A DNA stretch of 64,000 nt, taken from positions 81,798 through 145,797 of the forward strand of contig DAIDHW010000001.1 of assembly GCA_027451865.1 (NCBI GenBank), read 5' to 3'. Every line of letters begins with the position of its first letter. Position 1 is the first letter of the stretch. Under the pieces are notes generated by a model. The model was not told the origin of the DNA and did not search any database. It worked only from the letters and a program-made list of their open reading frames with translations. Source of the DNA: Leptolyngbyaceae cyanobacterium clean351. Its GTDB lineage: Bacteria; Cyanobacteriota; Cyanobacteriia; DAIDHW01. A program made the translations under genes and the position numbers. Positions 14,188 through 47,327 of the stretch are shown here, piece after piece.

Positions 14188-14682
14188 TCATCCCGGGCCA
14201 ACCGGGGACAGGGAGTTGACCTTAAGAGAGCCGTCCGCTTGGGGGTAAGCCTCTCCCAGATAGAGGGGCTGAGAGACACCCGGTTGAGGGTGCAGGAGAG
14301 TGCGGGCCCGCAGAGTGATAGTTTGGCCAGAGCGCTGCAGTCGTCCCCGAGCCAGGAGCAGATCCCCAGCGGCTTGCCTGAGGGTGGCTTCTACCGCCGG
14401 GGGGTCAGTACCTGGGGGTACGACGATGACCGCCTGGTTAGCCCCGTTATCAAACACCAGGGAGTAGTGGACTGCTCCGGGAACTAGGGAGCGCATCAGG
14501 GGTGGGGCCAGACTAAGGGCAAGGAGACCCCCAGCCAGTACACCCATGAAACCCGTGACCCCTACTAGCCGGAAGCGGATACCCCAGCCAAATACAAATC
14601 CAGCTGCTGCTCCCAAAGCCGCCACCACGGTAATTACCGCCGCACCTTCCCAAGCTAACCAAAAGTTGTGGGGGGTGATCAT
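14188..14682 (-). CDS. Small membrane protein of unknown function
   Basis: The 164-aa product has 3 TM helices. Its start overlaps the upstream SufU-like stop by 4 bp (ATGA). Confidence 0.55.
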   Translation of the reverse strand: MITPHNFWLAWEGAAVITVVAALGAAAGFVFGWGIRFRLVGVTGFMGVLAGGLLALSLAPPLMRSLVPGAVHYSLVFDNGANQAVIVVPPGTDPPAVEATLRQAAGDLLLARGRLQRSGQTITLRARTLLHPQPGVSQPLYLGEAYPQADGSLKVNSLSPVGPG

Positions 14683-24842: not shown

Positions 24843-27098
24843 ATGGATTTTTCGCCTGCCGATTTGCTCTCCAACTTTCCGGACGAGAAACTGGTTGCCC
24901 CTAAAATTTTAGAAAAAAAGCTCAATTGTACTACAAAAAGGTCCCTGGAGCAGCTGCAGATTTGCCTAGATGCCTTGGAGAAGTTAGAGATTCTAGTTAA
25001 GGAGCGGGGGAAGTATCGCCGAGTGACCGAAGAAGGCCTAGTCAGTGGCAAGCTGCGCTGTTCCAGTAAGGGTTTTTGTTTCGCGATTCAGGAAGTGGAG
25101 GGGGCCGAGGACATCTACATCCGTGAAACCCACGTCGGGACAGCCTGGAACGGTGACCGGGTACTAGTGAAGGTGACCCGGGAAGGCCGCCGCCGCCGCA
25201 GCCCTGAGGGGGAAGTACGCCTGGTGCTAGAGCGAGCTAACCCCTCGATTTTGGCCCGGGTCAAGCGTTCTCCCCAGGGATTCCAAGCCGTCCCCCTAGA
25301 TGACCGGCTTCTATTTGAATTGGACCTAGAGGCCGGAGAAGGAGAAGACCTCGCCCCCCTAGAGGGCCATCTAGTCCACGTGCGGATCCTGCGCTACCCC
25401 CTTGGTCAGCTGCGTCCGGTGGGTCAGGTCACCCGGAGCCTAGAAAGCGAAAGTGGACCAGCATCGGACCTGATGATCATCTGCTGTAAGCACGATTTGC
25501 CCCAGGACTTTCCGGCCGAAGTACTCCTAGCTGCCGACCAGGCCGCAGCAGAAATCTCCCCTGAGGAATTCGCTGCCCGCCGGGACCTGCGCTCTCTGTT
25601 CACAGTGGCTCTCAAGCCTAACCTTGATCCAGGGGTGTCTAACCACTCGGATAATGCCATTACCCTCGAGGAGCTACCCTCCGGGTTGTGGCGGCTGGGG
25701 ATTCACGTGGCTGACGTGGCCCACTTTGTCACTCCCCAATCACCCCTAGACCAGGAGGCCGAACGCCGCACCACCGCTGTCCACCTGGGGGACCAGGTCC
25801 TGCCCCTGCTGCCGGCTAACCTTACGGAACGATGCTGTGCTTTAATCCCTGGCCAGGACCGCTTGAGCATTTCGGTGCTGCTGACCCTGACCGCGAGCGG
25901 CGAAATCGTTACCTTTGAGATTCAACCAACGGTAGTGCAGGTAGATGAGTTTCTCAGCTACGCCCAGGCCCGGGATATCCTCCAGGCAGAACCGAGTAGC
26001 GACCTGCACCATTGGCTAGGCAACCTGCGCCAGTTGAGTGGTACGCTGGGAGAACAGCGCCGGCGGCGGGGAGCCTTTGAACTGAACCTGCCCCAGGCTC
26101 AGTTCCGCTGCGACGATGAAGGAGCCATGGGAGCTATGGTGGTTTCCTCTATTCAGCCAGTACGCTCCCTGGTGGCGGAGGTGATGATATTAGCTAACCA
26201 GGTAGTGGCCAGTCACCTGCAGGCCCTAGGGGTACCGGGGATTTACCGGGTTCATCCCCTACCTAACCTAGATAGCGTCCAGGAGGTAGCTAAGCTCGGC
26301 TGCAACATGGGGATTGAGCTACGCCTAGAGCAGGAGGACGGGGTCTGCCCCCAAGACTACCAGCACTTCACCCAGGCCTTTGCCAAATCCGAGCTAGAGA
26401 AGGTGCTCACCTACCTGTTGCTTGAGACCCTCAAGCCCGCCTCCTACAGCACTACCCCACGCTCCCACTTTGCCCTAGCCCTTGACCAGGGATATACTCA
26501 CTTCGTCTCGCCACTGCACCGCTATCCAGACCTATTGATCCAACGGGTCCTTAAGAGTGTGTTTGCCTTAGGCCGTGACCGCCGTTCCACCAGGACTAAG
26601 GAACAGGCAGACCTACGCAGCAGCATCTGTCATGGGAAAGTTACCTGGAAAGTACTCCCTCCGGAGGTCCACGAAGCCCTAGAGCAACAGTTTGCCAGTC
26701 AAGTAGTACACTTAACTGAACGGGAAAAGGAAGCCCTAGAGGCGGAAAAGGACATGGAAGGCCTCCAGAAAGCTGGCTTTATGGAACAGCGCACCGGCGA
26801 GATATTTCACGGTTTGATTATTGGAGTCCAATCCTACGGCCTGTTCGTGGAGATTGAGGAACTGTTGGTGGAAGGGCTAGTACACGTCAGCTCCCTTAAG
26901 GATGACTGGTACGAGTATCGGGCCCGTCAACAGGCCCTAGTGGGCCGTCGCAGCCGCCGCCAATACAGCCTCGGGGGCCAAGTCCTGGTCCAAGTCAAAG
27001 GGGTAGACTACTACCGTCAACAGATAGACCTTGTGATCATACCTGACGAGACCAAGGAAACCGAGCTAGACCTCGTCGAGACCGCTGAGGAATCTTGA
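24843..27098 (+). CDS. rnr: Ribonuclease R / RNase II-family 3'-5' exoribonuclease
   Basis: It has cold-shock-like OB folds, an RNB catalytic domain ('HVADVAHFV', 'LHLGDQVLPLLP') and a C-terminal S1 domain. The product is 751 aa. Confidence 0.9.
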   Translation: MDFSPADLLSNFPDEKLVAPKILEKKLNCTTKRSLEQLQICLDALEKLEILVKERGKYRRVTEEGLVSGKLRCSSKGFCFAIQEVEGAEDIYIRETHVGTAWNGDRVLVKVTREGRRRRSPEGEVRLVLERANPSILARVKRSPQGFQAVPLDDRLLFELDLEAGEGEDLAPLEGHLVHVRILRYPLGQLRPVGQVTRSLESESGPASDLMIICCKHDLPQDFPAEVLLAADQAAAEISPEEFAARRDLRSLFTVALKPNLDPGVSNHSDNAITLEELPSGLWRLGIHVADVAHFVTPQSPLDQEAERRTTAVHLGDQVLPLLPANLTERCCALIPGQDRLSISVLLTLTASGEIVTFEIQPTVVQVDEFLSYAQARDILQAEPSSDLHHWLGNLRQLSGTLGEQRRRRGAFELNLPQAQFRCDDEGAMGAMVVSSIQPVRSLVAEVMILANQVVASHLQALGVPGIYRVHPLPNLDSVQEVAKLGCNMGIELRLEQEDGVCPQDYQHFTQAFAKSELEKVLTYLLLETLKPASYSTTPRSHFALALDQGYTHFVSPLHRYPDLLIQRVLKSVFALGRDRRSTRTKEQADLRSSICHGKVTWKVLPPEVHEALEQQFASQVVHLTEREKEALEAEKDMEGLQKAGFMEQRTGEIFHGLIIGVQSYGLFVEIEELLVEGLVHVSSLKDDWYEYRARQQALVGRRSRRQYSLGGQVLVQVKGVDYYRQQIDLVIIPDETKETELDLVETAEES

Positions 27099-35427: not shown

Positions 35428-36324
35428 CTAGGAGTCCCCAAAACTAATCTGTTCAGAAATGTAGTCAGGGGGCTCTACATGGATTATTACCCGGGCTGGA
35501 CCGTACTGCTCTTCGATTAAGGCTTCTACCTGTTCGGTGATCTCGTGGGCACTGGGCACATCTGTAGGAACGACGATCAGGTGCATCTCCACAAACACTT
35601 GCCGGCCGACGATGCCGCGGGAAGCAATCTCATGACAGTTAAGGACCCCCGGCACCCCCATAGCTAGGGCATAGATGGCTTCCGGGGCAATGGCCATCTG
35701 GTCTACCAGCCAGGGCAAGCTAGATTCGACTACCTCCCAACCACTCCAGAACACCAGCAGCCCTACGGGGAAAGCCAACCACGCGTCTATCCAGGGATAA
35801 CCTAGATGCACCCCAATTAGCCCGGCAATGACCACGATGGTAACCCACAGGTCACTGAGGTTGTGCCGGGCATCGGCTAGGAGCAGGGGGCTTTTGAGAC
35901 GCTCTCCGACCCGCCGCTCGAGTAGGGAAACGGCAGTGTAACCCCCTACAATCAGTAACATCCCCCCTAGAACTCCCAAGGGAATGGATACTGTCTGGCT
36001 ATGGTTAGTGATCCGCTCCACCGCCCCCTGAAAGATCTCAAAGCAGGCAATTCCCAAGAAGACAGCGATGCCCAAAGTACCGACAGCCTCAAACTTCTGA
36101 TGGCCGTAGGGATGGTCCCGGTCCGGCTCGGGGGCTGCCAACTGATGGGTAACTAGGGCAAGTAGATTACTAGAGACATCGGTGACGCTATGGAGAGCTT
36201 CCGCCAGCAGACTCAAGGACCCTGTCCACCAGCCCATGGCTGCCTTCAGAGCTGCCACCAATACATTGAAGACTAAGGTAAACATTAGCACCCGCTGCAC
36301 CCGGGAGCGAGAAGAGATGGTCAT
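35428..36324 (-). CDS. Cation diffusion facilitator (CDF) divalent-metal efflux transporter
   Basis: It has six TMS, with HxxxD metal sites in TM2 ('HSVTD') and TM5 ('HNLSD'), and a cytoplasmic CTD. The start ATG overlaps the upstream large-ORF stop (ATGA). Confidence 0.85.
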   Translation of the reverse strand: MTISSRSRVQRVLMFTLVFNVLVAALKAAMGWWTGSLSLLAEALHSVTDVSSNLLALVTHQLAAPEPDRDHPYGHQKFEAVGTLGIAVFLGIACFEIFQGAVERITNHSQTVSIPLGVLGGMLLIVGGYTAVSLLERRVGERLKSPLLLADARHNLSDLWVTIVVIAGLIGVHLGYPWIDAWLAFPVGLLVFWSGWEVVESSLPWLVDQMAIAPEAIYALAMGVPGVLNCHEIASRGIVGRQVFVEMHLIVVPTDVPSAHEITEQVEALIEEQYGPARVIIHVEPPDYISEQISFGDS

Positions 36325-39300
36325 GAACCTCTCCGGTGAAGTACTTGGGAAATATGCATCAGAACCGCAGGATAGCTCAACACAATCGTACCGGCAGCGG
36401 TGCCGTGGAGAAATTCTACCTCGCCCACTGCTCCGATTGTAGAGGGAGATACCCAGGGGAAAGGGTCTAGGACTGGCCCAGGTTTTTGGGCCTCGAGGAA
36501 GTGTACCCCCCGTAACATAGCCAAAATACAAGGGCGGACCGGTGAGGTGCCTTCCGGGTCAAGGAGGTGGCGGCGGGGTCGCTCGGTGTTATTCAAGTTA
36601 CCGAGTTGTTGGTCATCTACCCAGGAATACATGCAAAATCCCGACTGGGGCCGGCCGCTCTCCTCCGCCACGTGCAACGTGGCAAAGCTATAGATGGGGA
36701 TGACTCCTGGCCCGGGGCGCCCACCAAGCAGCGCCCCGTGATCAAGGGTTGAGGGGACCTCGAAGGCAGCCTGGGGGGAGGTCCGCCGGTGTAAACGGGT
36801 GACGGGAAAAACATCCCGCAGCAGAGGGTAAATTACTAACCCAGGGAAGGCTTGGTAAACTTCCCGCAGAAATTGGAGTGGGAAGGGGGATAGACCCAGG
36901 CGCCGTCCTTCCCGCCGGGTGTGGGCTAACAGCATGATGTGCTCGCAACCGAGGGAAGCCAGCCGGGAGATTTCTTCCTTGACCAATCTCTGGGTCTGCA
37001 AACCGGCCTGGCCTTCCGTCAGATCAATACCACGGTGTTCCCGCTGCAAACGGTACCCAGGCCAAGGGGTGTCGATGGCCGTGGCGCTGTAGCTTTGGGT
37101 ACAACAGAGGCAGTTTTCCTCCCCGTGACTGGCTTGGCCCAATTCATCACAGGGACGGTAGGCATAGGAGACCAGACCTAACTTGGCCAGGTGGGGTAAC
37201 GAACCGGTACTGATCCCCAAGGGAAAGGCACAGGCTAAGGCTTGGAAGGCACCACCCTTGACGTACTTGGTGGTAGGCTTGCGGGGGTCTAGGTTGTCGA
37301 TCATCACCCCTTGGCAAAAGGTGGGCTGCTCTTGGGCCAGAGCTGCACTAATGGCCTTAGCAGCTGCGTAGACGTAGTCAGCGCCTCCCCCTGGGGCCGG
37401 CTGGCCTTGTGCCTGAAACCGCAGCATCAGTAGTGTCCAGGTCTGCGCCTTGAGGGTTAGGTGGGCCCGCAGGCAGTCTAGACAGGTGTAAACCAGCACG
37501 GTAAAGGCGGTAATTGCCACTGCGTGGGCTTGAGCCCTTTGGCGGTCCTCCTCCTGGGGCTGAGAGCGGGTCAGGTAGCGGTAGTCGTACTCCACCCGCA
37601 CCGCCCCCGGTAGGAGCCAGTCCCGGGTGACCAGCGGGAGGTTGCTGGGCACCCAACCTACCTGCAAAAACTGGGGGGTGGGAAGGCGTTGAATCTGCAG
37701 CTGGAGGGGGGGGCCCTCTGGTACTAGATCGTATTCGGCGATCCGGGTGACCACCTTGATGGCAAACAAGAGGTGTTGGTCCTCTGGCCGGCTACGAATT
37801 TGTACCTGTCTAAGCCACTCGCTGGGGCTATGGGTGGGATTGGTAGCTTGGATCAGTAGGTCCTTAGTGCCAGGCTCGGCCCCCTCCAGGCGACTCCAGT
37901 TGACTATCCCCCTTTGAACACAGATGAATTGCTCCCGGACCTGGGTCCTAGTCTGGGCGACAATCTGCCGGCCTTTAGTCCGTAACACTTCCACTAGGGC
38001 TCGGGCAATGGTGTTCACTAGTCCCGCTTGCTGGCGCAAGTCTGCTAGCAGTTCCCTCACGAGTCCCCGGCCTTCAGTTTTCAGCCTGTCTAGGAGTTGG
38101 GTGAGGTCCTGGTCTAGGGAACCCCCGCCCCTGGGTAAAGCCAAGGTTAAGAATACTAGTTGAGCTAGGGAGGATTCTAGGTAGGGGACCTTGCCCGAGT
38201 CCTCTAGGAGGGCGGTCTTGATTTTTGCCAGCCGCTCGAGAAAGGTACTTTGACCACTATCTGGGTTATTGCCATTGACCCGAAATCGATAACTGACCTC
38301 CCGCTCCACTCCCAGGGCTTGGAAGCTGAACATCTGGGCCTGAGGTTCAATCCACACCGGCAGACAATAGGAGAATCCCACCTGGTCCACTTGAGACCAC
38401 AGGGAGAAATGCCCCCGCAACCCGTATTGGGGAGACATTTCCATCTCTGGCTCACCCTGTTGGACTAGGTTAAATAAACCCAGTACTCGAGTTATGTAAC
38501 TTGAGAGGGCCTGATGGGCAGTACAGGCGTTAGCAGGGATATTCCCAGCCAGATTCTCCATAATCTGGTTGCCGATCCGCAGGCGGATTCGACCTAGGAC
38601 TTGTTCCTCGAGGAAGCGCCAAAAACTAGATAACTGACTTGTGGGGTCGTCCTGTTGCACCCCTAGGCTGGCGCAGGCCCGGTCCACCAGCTCTGGCTCA
38701 CAGTCTCTCCCCTGCTCAAGGTGGTGACCGATCGCACGCACCATTGCCGGAAAGTGGTCCCTAGTTTCGACCTGTTCGCGGGCAGTGATCAGTCTGGCTA
38801 ATCCGGCTTGACTTGCACCAGCGGCAGTCTGCAGTTTCAGGGGTGTGAGATTGACCGGTTGGGCCACCGGGAAGCGGTAGGCCAGCCTCAACCGAGTGGC
38901 TAAAGCGCGCAGCTGATCCCCCTCCTGCAACAGGGGAGTTGGGAGGGTGGGCAAGGCGGCGGTTAGTTCCTGGTCAATGGCGGCCCTGAGACGGTCTAGA
39001 GCCCTAGGCAGCCTCTCCTGGTTACCGGGAGGCAGGGTAGCACCCATCTGGCAGCGGGAGCGGGGGGCCGGCCGGGGAAAATTGACGATAAAGGGGTGGC
39101 CCTCACCGGGGTCAGTCAGGGTTTTGAAGTCTGGGTGCTGAAACAGTAGGGCGAAGACCTTGTCAGTAGTCAGACGGAGATGCTGATCACCGGTTGAGCA
39201 TAGACTGCCAGGGGGGGCTGTCTGCAGAACCTCCCCTAGTAGCTCCACTAATCGAGCTAAGTTCAGGGCCGGCCGGGCAACCTTGGGTCGTAGCTGGGCA

Positions 39301-39344
39301 CCTCCAGTTTGAAAGTTTGTCAAGGAACTCCCCTCTCCAGGCAA
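36321..39344 (-). CDS. Large (1007 aa) protein of unknown function. Its C-terminal region has PIWI-domain-like motifs (see findings)
   Basis: A long ORF with host-typical codon usage, no Walker motifs and no TM segments. Near the C-terminus there is an 'HTRREG' site and a block 'IPIYSFATLHVAEESGRPQSGFCMYSWVDDQQL'. This block resembles the Argonaute PIWI '[27 protein letters not shown]' region. The start is uncertain (TTG in the ORF track). Confidence 0.8.
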   Translation of the reverse strand: MPGEGSSLTNFQTGGAQLRPKVARPALNLARLVELLGEVLQTAPPGSLCSTGDQHLRLTTDKVFALLFQHPDFKTLTDPGEGHPFIVNFPRPAPRSRCQMGATLPPGNQERLPRALDRLRAAIDQELTAALPTLPTPLLQEGDQLRALATRLRLAYRFPVAQPVNLTPLKLQTAAGASQAGLARLITAREQVETRDHFPAMVRAIGHHLEQGRDCEPELVDRACASLGVQQDDPTSQLSSFWRFLEEQVLGRIRLRIGNQIMENLAGNIPANACTAHQALSSYITRVLGLFNLVQQGEPEMEMSPQYGLRGHFSLWSQVDQVGFSYCLPVWIEPQAQMFSFQALGVEREVSYRFRVNGNNPDSGQSTFLERLAKIKTALLEDSGKVPYLESSLAQLVFLTLALPRGGGSLDQDLTQLLDRLKTEGRGLVRELLADLRQQAGLVNTIARALVEVLRTKGRQIVAQTRTQVREQFICVQRGIVNWSRLEGAEPGTKDLLIQATNPTHSPSEWLRQVQIRSRPEDQHLLFAIKVVTRIAEYDLVPEGPPLQLQIQRLPTPQFLQVGWVPSNLPLVTRDWLLPGAVRVEYDYRYLTRSQPQEEDRQRAQAHAVAITAFTVLVYTCLDCLRAHLTLKAQTWTLLMLRFQAQGQPAPGGGADYVYAAAKAISAALAQEQPTFCQGVMIDNLDPRKPTTKYVKGGAFQALACAFPLGISTGSLPHLAKLGLVSYAYRPCDELGQASHGEENCLCCTQSYSATAIDTPWPGYRLQREHRGIDLTEGQAGLQTQRLVKEEISRLASLGCEHIMLLAHTRREGRRLGLSPFPLQFLREVYQAFPGLVIYPLLRDVFPVTRLHRRTSPQAAFEVPSTLDHGALLGGRPGPGVIPIYSFATLHVAEESGRPQSGFCMYSWVDDQQLGNLNNTERPRRHLLDPEGTSPVRPCILAMLRGVHFLEAQKPGPVLDPFPWVSPSTIGAVGEVEFLHGTAAGTIVLSYPAVLMHISQVLHRRGS

Positions 39345-39465
39345 AATTTAGTCAACCTAAGCTATCAGTCTGGTGATTAACCCGGGCTGGTAGTTTATTA
39401 TAACTATTATTAGGACTACGGGGTGAATTAGTCTGGGTCGGAATTTGGACATCCCGCCCTGGAAG

Positions 39466-39897
39466 TTAAGGGTGGTAGTAGGCGCCTGGGTCGGGATAGA
39501 AAGGCTGGACCTCCGATATCACTTCTAGTCCTAGGTCCTCTAGGAGGGAGAGTAGGACTGGATCGGGAGCTAGGCGGAGGTAGCCCGGTGTAAGCTCGAG
39601 GGGGGTGTGGCGGTTGCCTAGGTGATAGGCAGCCCGCAGTAGGCTCAAGGGTTGGGAGCTGGTAACGGTTAGCACCGGTTCGGGTCGAGCAAGTACCCGC
39701 AGGGCTGGAGCCCCTGCCTGAGGAGCGAGCAGGTCACCATCCTCCAGACGCATCCCCCGGGGCAGCTGAAGCCGCACTAACTCCCCCACCGCTGTGTAGG
39801 CTATTTGTCGGGGCCGACAGCGCTCCTCAGCACTCAAGGGTAACAGCAGAAACTGGCCTTCGGCTCTAGGGAGGCGCTGGGTGAGCACCAGAGTCAT
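39466..39897 (-). CDS. ureE: Urease accessory protein UreE (nickel metallochaperone)
   Basis: The '[13 protein letters not shown]' core motif is present and the product is 143 aa. It overlaps tpiA by 4 bp. Confidence 0.75.
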
Positions 39898-40625
39898 CGG
39901 TGCAGGTAGTTAATAATGCGTCCGAAACTCTCAGGCTCTAAACTAGCTCCGCCCACTAGTACCCCATTGATCTCGGGCTGACCCATGATCTCATCGATGT
40001 TATCTGGCTTAACTGACCCGCCGTACTGAATACAGACCTGTTGATTGGCCAGTTGGCGGCGGATTAAAGCAACTACCCGGTTTGCCTCGACTGCTTCACA
40101 GGTATCACCTGTGCCAATTGCCCAAATGGGCTCGTAGGCAACTACCAAATTATTTTGGTCGATGCCCTCCAGGGCCACTTCAAGTTGATGAAGGATCACC
40201 GCCTCAGCCTCCCCTTGATCCCGCTGGTCCTTGGTTTCTCCAACGCAGAGGATAGGGGTGAGGCCACTAGCCTGGGCGGCTCGTAAGCGTCCATTGACAG
40301 TTTGGTCAGTCTCACCAAAGTATTGTCGTCGTTCACTGTGCCCGACAATTACGTAACGCACTCCCAGTTCCACTAACATGGGGGCAGATATCTCCCCAGT
40401 AAAAGCCCCCCCCTCTGCCCAGTGTAGGTTTTGTGCCCCCAGCAAAACTCGGCTACCGTGCAGGTGCTGACTGACTACCGCCAAGTCGGTAAAGGGTACG
40501 CATAGGACCACCCCCCGCTCAGGGGTATTCAGGTCTAAACAGGGGAGAAACCTTTGGCAAAATTCCCGGGCTTGGGCCTGGGTTTTATACATTTTCCAGT
40601 TGCCAGCTATCAGTATCTTGGGCAC
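39894..40625 (-). CDS. tpiA: Triose-phosphate isomerase
   Basis: The '[12 protein letters not shown]' N-terminus, catalytic 'VIVGHSERR' and '[11 protein letters not shown]' are present. The GTG at 40625 gives a canonical length of about 243 aa, whereas the ORF track extends to a TTG at 40718. Confidence 0.88.
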
Positions 40626-40771
40626 AGTGAAAGGATATACAAGGACACTTAACAAGTTTAAGGTGTTTTGTCGGCTGCTTGAAGGGCAATTGCCTTGGGC
40701 CAATGGGGATTTAGTCAACTACAATAGATAATCACGCCTTATTCGAACCCTAATCCAAGTCTCGGTAAACC

Positions 40772-44346: not shown

Positions 44347-44727
44347 ATGGATTGGATTGAAATTAAAGCCTTGCACTGTTACGGATACACTGGTCTATTG
44401 CCTGAGGAGCAAGTCCTAGGCCAGTGGTTTGCGGTAGACCTGGCCCTAGAGGTGGATCTGCGCCTAGCAGGTCGTAGTGACCACCTTGAGGACACCCTAG
44501 ACTACCGGGGGGTGATTCAGGACGTCCGCTCCCTGGTAGGGTCAGCTCGCTTCGCTCTAATTGAACGTCTAGCAGCAGCGATTGCCGAGGGGGTTTTAGC
44601 CCAAGGGGTGGTGAGGCAGGTGAGGGTCCGGCTGACTAAACTCGCCCCCCCCATCCCTGACTTTGGGGGTCAGATTACAATAGAAATCTGTCGCCACCAA
44701 TTGCACGAGGAATTATCACCCCCATGA
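44347..44727 (+). CDS. folB: Dihydroneopterin aldolase
   Basis: The sequence '[31 protein letters not shown]' matches FolB, and the product is 126 aa. Confidence 0.85.
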
Positions 44728-47225: not shown

Positions 47226-47308
47226 GGGGGCATGGCGGAATGGTAGACGCTGCGGACTTAAAATCCGCTGGTAGTAATACCGTGTGGGTTCGAGTCCCAC
47301 TGCCCCCA
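47226..47308 (+). tRNA. tRNA-Leu (anticodon UAA), long variable arm, CCA not encoded
   Basis: The acceptor stem GGGGGCA pairs with TGCCCCC. The D-loop is 'ggaatggtag', the anticodon loop is 'ct-taa-aa', the variable arm is 'tggtagtaataccgtg' and the T-arm is 'gtgggttcgagtcccac'. Confidence 0.85.
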
Positions 47309-47327
47309 CTGTACTCTTGGATAGGGC

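Follow-up and report, generated by a model that had tools for sequence, protein, structure and literature searches.

Do a large PIWI-like protein and a metal transporter that share a stop/start junction form one functional unit? The question is raised by a 64,000-nucleotide stretch of the genome of Leptolyngbyaceae cyanobacterium clean351 (contig DAIDHW010000001.1, positions 81,798 to 145,797 of the forward strand), referred to here as the window and numbered from its first nucleotide. On the minus strand, which encodes all of the features of the locus described below, the stop codon of a large open reading frame (ORF; 36321..39323) overlaps the start codon of a cation diffusion facilitator (CDF) gene (35428..36324), and ureE lies just upstream. 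The original prediction took the first two genes for a possible PIWI-transporter unit, with a membrane effector, a metal-related role or coincidental packing as its explanations. We find that the PIWI-CDF unit is not a real system; it is the gene packing of one genome and is ordinary on its own terms. In our assessment, the large ORF probably encodes an orphaned Argonaute-fold subunit of a two-gene helicase module and has a CDF gene as its neighbor by accident.

The arrangement of the large ORF followed by a CDF gene is known from a single genome. Gene order was compared at 86 related loci, which were queried with the large protein of the window, the CDF protein, UreE, and four representatives of the gene found 3' of the homologue. 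Neither a CDF gene nor ureE was found within 10 kb of the homologue at any of these loci (0/86). Instead, a gene for an SF2 (superfamily 2) helicase-like protein of ~1,290 amino acids was found directly 3' of the homologue and on the same strand at 85 of the 86 loci; the exception stops at a contig edge. Because of these two counts, a functional pairing of the PIWI-like protein with the CDF is not supported, and the transporter gene appears to be a chance neighbor. The proposals of a membrane-effector arrangement resembling SiAgo-Aga2 and of a metal-related role fall with the pair, and the evidence favors the remaining explanation that had been offered, a coincidence of operon packing in a compact genome. 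The accompanying list of described partners of prokaryotic Argonautes (pAgos) had omitted the helicase-nucleases of DdmDE and ApsAB, which is the arrangement that this Argonaute-fold family resembles.

The helicase partner has a Helicase_C match (E values of 5e-6 to 6e-5) together with P-loop matches, and the motifs GIGKT, VDE (consensus VDEL) and QLIYRGRG are invariant in it. Its mean column identity is 58% over cyanobacteria and proteobacteria. No NCBIfam name was obtained for the partner, PADLOC gave no significant match (AbiEii at an E value of 0.047, for one partner), and comparison of the partner profile with the PDB returned only marginal matches to DEAD-box RecA2 domains (E value of ~0.1). 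The Walker A motif is located near residue 476, after an N-terminal region of ~430 amino acids in which D154, E201, K266, K270 and Q273-x3-Y277 are invariant (numbering of the copy at locus L004). No domain model matched residues ~150 to 280 of this region, which, from its pattern of invariant residues, could be a nuclease of the RecB/Cas4-type PD-(D/E)xK class.

The genes for the homologue and the helicase are joined by TAATG or TGATG at 15 of the 26 loci examined and by an ATGA-type overlap at 4 of the 26. The Shine-Dalgarno sequence of the junction, GGAG, sits within codons for a conserved terminal His-Arg-Arg, and the homologues read CAC CGG AGG before the helicase ATG. Judged by these junctions, translational coupling is a trait of the family. 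In the window, the TGA stop of the large ORF (36323-36321) and the ATG of the CDF gene (36324-36322) form the ATGA overlap (36321..36324), read directly from the sequence; the overlap and the ureE gene just upstream are present as originally described. This junction retains CAC CGG AGA GG, in which a Shine-Dalgarno-like GGAGAGG (36328..36334) lies 3 nucleotides 5' of the CDF ATG, inside the terminal His-Arg-Arg-Gly codons, and the CDF ATG is three bases from the position of the helicase ATG in relatives. With the ancestral CAC CGG AG(G) preserved and the CDF start so close to the helicase start site, the helicase gene was probably lost from this genome in a deletion that extended from its own start to that of the CDF gene. 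Such a deletion would have left the CDF gene, the next gene, in the translationally coupled slot of the helicase. Elsewhere, the helicase gene is frameshifted at L013 and L065, interrupted by an insert of ~1.1 kb at L029, internally deleted at L053 (where the Argonaute-fold gene is frameshifted too) and truncated at L083. With the partner damaged at five loci, its decay recurs in the family.

Within the 64-kb window, no helicase partner was detected by tblastn with four partner proteins (E value of ≤10). The window protein is the shortest of 59 aligned family members and the most divergent cyanobacterial one; its identity to relatives does not exceed 43%, and the other close homologues are mostly 50 to 93% identical (P0011 is an outlier at ~35 to 39%). 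In the 1,007-residue numbering used throughout, E340S, E666S and E953Q occur in the window protein alone, at positions where Glu is found in 54, 52 and 57 of the 58 other sequences, respectively. These replacements may reflect a function that was lost or altered after the loss of the helicase.

A helicase encoded elsewhere in the genome might still serve the Argonaute-fold protein, in which case the CDF adjacency would be due to a rearrangement. Such a split module would fit the retention of 93% of the strongly conserved positions and of an intact frame despite an identity of ≤43%, and the contig is at least 1.2 Mb long, of which the helicase search spanned 64 kb. However, the two genes are adjacent at all 85 informative loci and usually overlap, so that a split would be unprecedented, and the three near-invariant glutamates are replaced solely in the window copy. 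We consider a split module unlikely.

The description of the large protein as PIWI-like holds at the level of fold and finds no support from sequence or profile searches. The window protein matched 0 Pfam families at an E value of ≤1, and searches against NCBIfam, PADLOC (E values of ≤1 to 10) and PDB chain sequences also gave no match. A profile built from 59 members of the family found nothing below an E value of 0.5 among PDB sequences. At an E value of ≤10, Piwi (PF02171), PAZ and the pPIWI_RE models matched none of the 45 family members searched, and hhalign gave the family profile a probability of 0.2% against TtAgo and 0.1% against a six-sequence profile of long pAgos. A model was then obtained with AlphaFold2 from 59 diverse sequences, with a predicted local distance difference test (pLDDT) score of 90 and a predicted template-modeling (pTM) score of 0.91; it replaced a poor model (pLDDT of 55) made from an 11-sequence alignment. 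When this model was compared with the PDB by Foldseek, all of the top 50 matches were Argonaute or PIWI proteins (probability of 0.94 to 1.00, and 1.00 for 44 of them), including Siwi (E value of 6e-7), TtAgo, human AGO1-4, MILI, EfPiwi, yeast Ago and the short pAgo of SPARTA. E values in the top 50 ranged from 6e-7 to 3e-4 over ~450 to 600 aligned columns, with ~10% identity and template-modeling (TM) scores of 0.17 to 0.38.

The C-terminal 370 residues of the model comprise a Rossmann-like beta-alpha-beta-alpha-beta segment (residues 637-712; 37209..37436), followed by an RNase H-type unit (residues 721-1007; 36324..37184) with the order beta1-3, alpha, beta4, alpha, beta5. A viral fold library gave weak matches of the RNase H/RuvC type. 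The predicted model thus supports a very divergent Argonaute fold that has MID-like and PIWI-like domains, a likeness of structure that is not seen in the sequence. Were this likeness an artifact of modeling or of the structure search, the protein would be an unrelated large alpha/beta protein, as might be suspected from the low TM scores and from the failure of every sequence and profile method to reach PIWI. An artifact is nevertheless quite improbable: the 50 top PDB matches are all Argonautes and span several clades, the order of secondary-structure elements agrees with a Rossmann-like MID domain followed by RNase H, the second library points to RNase H/RuvC, and the helicase pairing parallels those of DdmDE, ApsAB and pPIWI-RE (PMC11096173, PMC3702460).

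Conservation was counted over the 59 aligned family sequences, window protein included. G358, Q678, G679, R730 and H948 are invariant, and R642, Y659, R850, E862 and E953, the last of which is replaced by Q in the window protein, are nearly so. In the MID-like segment, Q678 and G679 are found in 59 of 59 sequences, R642 in 56 and Y659 in 53, and position 663 (K in the window protein) is Q, H, K or R in 53 of 59. From this pattern we infer that R642, Y659, residue 663 and Q678-G679 may be residues of a 5'-end pocket. The arrangement Y659-x3-(Q/H/K)663...Q678-G679 appears to resemble the MID motif of ApsB.

In the PIWI-like segment, to which the invariant R730 and H948 as well as E862 and E953 belong, R843-D844 and P883-x-Y885-x-x-A888-T889 likewise appear to resemble the RDG and P-x-Y-Y-A-H motifs of PIWI. 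D844, within the RD motif, is present in 45 of the 59 sequences. The first PIWI strand has no conserved acidic residue; R730 is invariant there, and D733 is found in 39 of 59. The site equivalent to the fourth catalytic residue, mapped by motif analogy only, is A or T. By this mapping, no catalytic set of the DEDX type is conserved in the 59-sequence alignment, and the Argonaute-fold family is therefore probably not a nuclease or slicer. The strongest motif of the family lies outside the MID-PIWI lobe: R-E-V-S-Y-R-F-R-x-N-G at residues 348-358 (window positions ~38271-38303), which contains the invariant G358 and is located in a beta-hairpin of the N-terminal half.

Argonaute-like proteins that are encoded with helicases have been described in several systems. 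Like DdmDE, the plasmid defense system of Vibrio cholerae, the module consists of two genes, one for a probably inactive Argonaute-like protein and one for an SF2 helicase-type protein of ~1,200 to 1,300 amino acids, and DdmE is also poorly detectable by sequence. DdmE has ~700 amino acids, and ddmD precedes ddmE; in contrast, the Argonaute-fold protein here has ~1,060 amino acids and is encoded upstream of the helicase. DdmD is a helicase-nuclease; the partner in this family matches no nuclease model, but its invariant D154, E201, K266, K270 and Q273-x3-Y277 recall nucleases of the RecB type. Neither the Argonaute-fold nor the helicase profile matched DdmD or DdmE chains among the PDB sequences, a set in which both chains are assumed to be present.

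ApsAB is an antiplasmid system of Escherichia coli ST38, composed of a helicase and an Argonaute-like protein that is loosely similar to pAgos in structure (PMC11096173). ApsB has a conserved MID-type motif, Y-x3-K...QG, and ApsAB-like systems have been reported from beta- and gammaproteobacteria and from cyanobacteria (PMC11096173). The module resembles ApsAB in pairing a helicase with an Argonaute-like protein and in having Y659-x3-(Q/H/K)663 and the invariant Q678-G679. It differs in gene order, which is reversed relative to apsA followed by apsB, in the size of its Argonaute-like protein (the ApsB-like protein has ~770 amino acids) and in the place of the Walker A motif, which is near the N terminus in ApsA. 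When the Nostoc sp. LPT proteins (PMC11096173, supplement; first ~400 residues of each) were compared by hhalign, no relation to ApsB-like or ApsA-like proteins was detected (probability of ≤0.3%).

The pPIWI-RE proteins are divergent bacterial PIWI proteins with uncharacterized N-terminal domains, are encoded with an SF2 helicase and have a patchy distribution that includes cyanobacteria (Burroughs et al. 2013, PMC3702460). Copies without the helicase are known, and the gene order is strictly restriction endonuclease (REase), DinG, pPIWI-RE (PMC3702460). The present family is similar in that a divergent PIWI-type protein is encoded with an SF2 helicase, in its patchy distribution and in the existence of a stand-alone copy. 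Unlike in pPIWI-RE systems, the Argonaute-fold gene is followed by the helicase gene (85/86 loci), and there is no separate REase gene. The models DUF3893/RNaseH_pPIWI_RE, MID_pPIWI_RE and pPIWI_RE_X matched 0 of 45 family members at an E value of ≤10. No invariant Cys is found between the Walker A and VDE motifs of the partner; a DinG-type Fe-S cluster is thus absent, in contrast to the pPIWI-RE helicase. The long-B and short pAgo systems (BPAN, SPARTA and SiAgo-Aga1/Aga2) also place an inactive PIWI sensor beside an effector, and SPARTA is among the fold matches, but those pAgos are detected by Pfam Piwi and this family is not. Their effectors are nucleases, TIR/SIR2 or small membrane proteins; the partner here is a helicase of ~1,290 amino acids.

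In sequence and architecture, every test of membership that was run places the module outside DdmDE, ApsAB and pPIWI-RE. It is known that Argonaute-like subunits paired with a helicase are hard to detect by sequence (PMC11096173, PMC3702460). By analogy, the module most likely works like these three systems. The family would then be a guide-binding, catalytically inactive Argonaute-fold sensor that, together with a translocating helicase or perhaps a helicase-nuclease, acts against invading DNA such as plasmids or phages (PMC11096173, PMC3702460, bioRxiv 10.1101/2024.05.10.593530). Guide binding, the defense role, the deletion in the window genome and a present activity of the orphan are all parts of this analogy-based scheme that we infer. 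In the window genome, the sensor gene would probably be transcribed from the AT-rich gap 5' of it or by read-through from tpiA-ureE. The CDF gene would be a passenger, co-transcribed and perhaps co-translated through the inherited coupling, without a functional link.

The CDF protein (298 amino acids) matches Cation_efflux (E value of 1e-39) and ZT_dimer (E value of 2e-17) in Pfam. In NCBIfam, it scores 194 bits against TIGR01297 and, over the full length of the model, 440 bits against the Cdf31 zinc-efflux equivalog (cutoff of 460 bits). Both HxxxD motifs expected in TM2 and TM5 of a CDF, HSVTD and HNLSD, are visible in the translation, and the original description of the transporter as intact and likely functional agrees with these features. 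Searches gave 3,366 homologues at an E value of ≤1e-40, the nearest of them 60 to 67% identical and spread over many cyanobacteria. Two orthologues whose contexts were checked lie in unrelated neighborhoods, with no large ORF and with upstream spacers of their own of 160 to 200 nucleotides; unlike these, the window gene lacks such a spacer. Both a CDF homologue and the Argonaute-fold/helicase module are present in Nostoc linckia NIES-25 and in Nostoc sp. FACHB-110, where no CDF gene lies within 10 kb of the module. By its domain matches and motifs, the CDF is an ordinary housekeeping zinc exporter of the Cdf31 type. A 367-amino-acid CDF ORF with a TTG start (35428-36531) was rejected as an in-frame upstream extension, and the orthologues and the Cdf31 model favor the ATG at 36324.

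To our knowledge, no pAgo system with a CDF transporter has been described, and the window locus does not establish one. In such a pair, the transporter would have replaced the helicase as the effector and would act, for example, by ion flux or by abortive infection, much as in SiAgo-Aga2 or the long-B pAgo systems that have membrane effectors. The ATGA overlap and the Shine-Dalgarno sequence in the last codons make co-transcription and coupling likely, the CDF gene sits in the slot of the helicase, and the orphan is seemingly under selection. A functional pair is nonetheless very unlikely: it occurs once, with no CDF gene beside any homologue at the 86 loci; the CDF matches Cdf31 over the full length as a near-equivalog, carries no additional domain and has orthologues of 60 to 67% identity across cyanobacteria, the two checked ones being in unrelated contexts; and an identical overlap joins tpiA and ureE. 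Highly improbable, too, is the idea that an orphan sensor kept by selection was rewired by translational coupling to the CDF as a new membrane effector or output; if true, the rewired sensor and CDF would be an unprecedented combination of a pAgo-like protein and an ion transporter. A metal-related role for the large protein, suggested by nothing but its position between ureE upstream and the CDF gene downstream, is barely credible, since the protein matches no metal-binding family, its homologues are never near ureE or a CDF gene, its conserved partner is a helicase, its fold matches are nucleic acid-binding Argonautes, ureE is coupled to tpiA in what is housekeeping packing, and urease genes are often scattered in cyanobacteria.

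The longest ORF of the Argonaute-fold gene (36321..39344; 1,007 codons) begins with a TTG, and a second TTG lies in frame 21 nucleotides downstream, at 39323. The latter is probably the true start, giving a protein of 1,000 amino acids, because the NCBI record of the protein (P0001) has 1,000 amino acids, the N termini of the homologues agree, and GGAGAGGGGAG precedes it. This Shine-Dalgarno-like run (39338-39328) is better than that of the upstream TTG, and the originally reported end coordinate of 39344 is thus probably 21 nucleotides too far upstream. The region 5' of the gene (39324..39465; 44 to 47% GC), with the Shine-Dalgarno-like run and a TATAAT, is a possible promoter and 5' untranslated region. 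The AT-rich gap of ~120 bp that had been proposed as the promoter is 121 bp long (39345-39465) and has 44% GC, compared with 57% across the window, and an exact TATAAT is found at 39402-39397 of the minus strand. A consensus scan of the gap found neither a complete sigma-70 promoter nor a terminator.

Upstream of the gap, ureE (39466..39897), which encodes the nickel chaperone of urease, matches UreE_C (E value of 4e-21) and UreE_N (E value of 1.5e-7) in Pfam and scores below the equivalog cutoffs of the NCBIfam UreE models. It shares an ATGA overlap at 39894-39897 with tpiA (39894..40718; Pfam TIM, E value of 2e-89). In cyanobacterial genomes, accessory genes of urease often lie apart from one another, and a solitary ureE is therefore unremarkable. 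Overlaps of -4 are found at 5 of ~36 same-strand gene junctions of the window, the others being at 14679-14682, 27095-27098 and 44724-44727. Because such overlaps are common in the window and an identical ATGA joins the unrelated genes tpiA and ureE, the overlap of the large ORF with the CDF gene is unremarkable here. The neighboring genes are housekeeping genes (photolyase, UbiA, UPF0014, periplasmic binding protein, TIM, methyltransferase and aminotransferase). Recent horizontal transfer of the large ORF was ruled out, given its host-like codon usage and GC content at third codon positions (GC3) and the lack of an adjoining tRNA gene; the sole tRNA gene of the window is at 47226-47309.

A search of a word-indexed database gave 11 close relatives of the large protein, and a query with the 59-sequence alignment gave the same 11 proteins. 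An exhaustive hidden Markov model search gave ~305 clusters at 50% identity (E value of ≤0.001), and the full-length members among those listed have ~1,000 to 1,180 amino acids. The 107 loci found among GTDB species genomes are mainly from cyanobacteria and beta- and gammaproteobacteria, with single bins of Actinomycetota and Acidobacteriota. Distant pairs are carried by plasmid C of Trichormus variabilis ATCC 29413 (L096, 2948-9654; hhalign probability of 99.9%) and by pYH12207-1 of Acinetobacter piscicola (L095, 2405-9969; hhalign probability of 100%), the latter flanked by HNH endonucleases, a WYL protein and IS3. Further distant pairs are found on a 1.6-Mb replicon of Cupriavidus and on an Acetobacter plasmid. 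Of the plasmids with distant pairs, one was typed as conjugative and one as mobilizable. The two plasmid copies at L095 and L096 are annotated merely as "hypothetical protein" and "helicase-related protein," and no description of the Argonaute-fold/helicase family was found in the literature.

No third conserved gene was found: 150 flanking ORFs from 47 loci match 143 Pfam families, each of them seen in three ORFs at most. The highly variable flanks include scattered McrBC, GmrSD, DNA methylases, TnpB/Cas12f-like genes and RepB/ParB, and no clear defense-island signal was found in them. On these data, the Argonaute-fold and helicase pair is a self-contained, mobile and patchily distributed two-gene module. 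Individual neighborhoods differ. A helicase-rich cluster lies directly 5' of the module at L003 (1-7736) and encodes a protein of at least 1,915 amino acids with DEAD, Helicase_C and MZB domains, a UvrD-type helicase, a 302-amino-acid ORF and a DUF6884 protein. At L006, an AbiJ/Abi_C gene is upstream of the module, and umuDC-like genes are downstream. The homologue P0006 (L003, 8001-11186) is labeled "CHAT domain-containing protein" in UniRef; this label looks like a misannotation, since no family member has a CHAT match in Pfam.

Several observations weigh against an orphaned subunit of a helicase module. The Argonaute homology comes from one predicted model and from Foldseek matches with low TM scores (0.17 to 0.38) and ~10% identity, and the profile-profile comparison with long pAgos gave a probability of 0.1%. 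The defense role is proposed by analogy and from patchy, partly defense-like neighborhoods, and no PADLOC model matches. The helicase search covered the 64-kb window, and the helicase gene may lie elsewhere in the genome. The arrangement is found in one genome, and a lineage-specific functional link to the CDF is conceivable. Finally, the window protein keeps 65 of 70 (93%) strongly conserved positions, an intact 3-kb frame and host-like codons and GC3. By these last features, the gene is an old resident under constraint and not a fresh pseudogene, and they point to continued selection and some function, which a simple relic does not explain.

Beyond the single locus, these results describe an unannotated family of Argonaute-fold proteins of ~1,000 to 1,150 amino acids that was missed by Pfam, NCBIfam, PADLOC and PDB sequence searches and whose strict partner is a large helicase, in most cases joined to it by translational coupling. 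If the module is a guided antiplasmid or antiphage system, it would be a third or fourth independent lineage in which an Argonaute-like sensor is combined with a helicase, beside DdmDE, ApsAB and pPIWI-RE, and its proteins would be new programmable nucleic acid-binding scaffolds. As a naturally occurring variant without the helicase, the window copy could reveal what the sensor subunit does alone.

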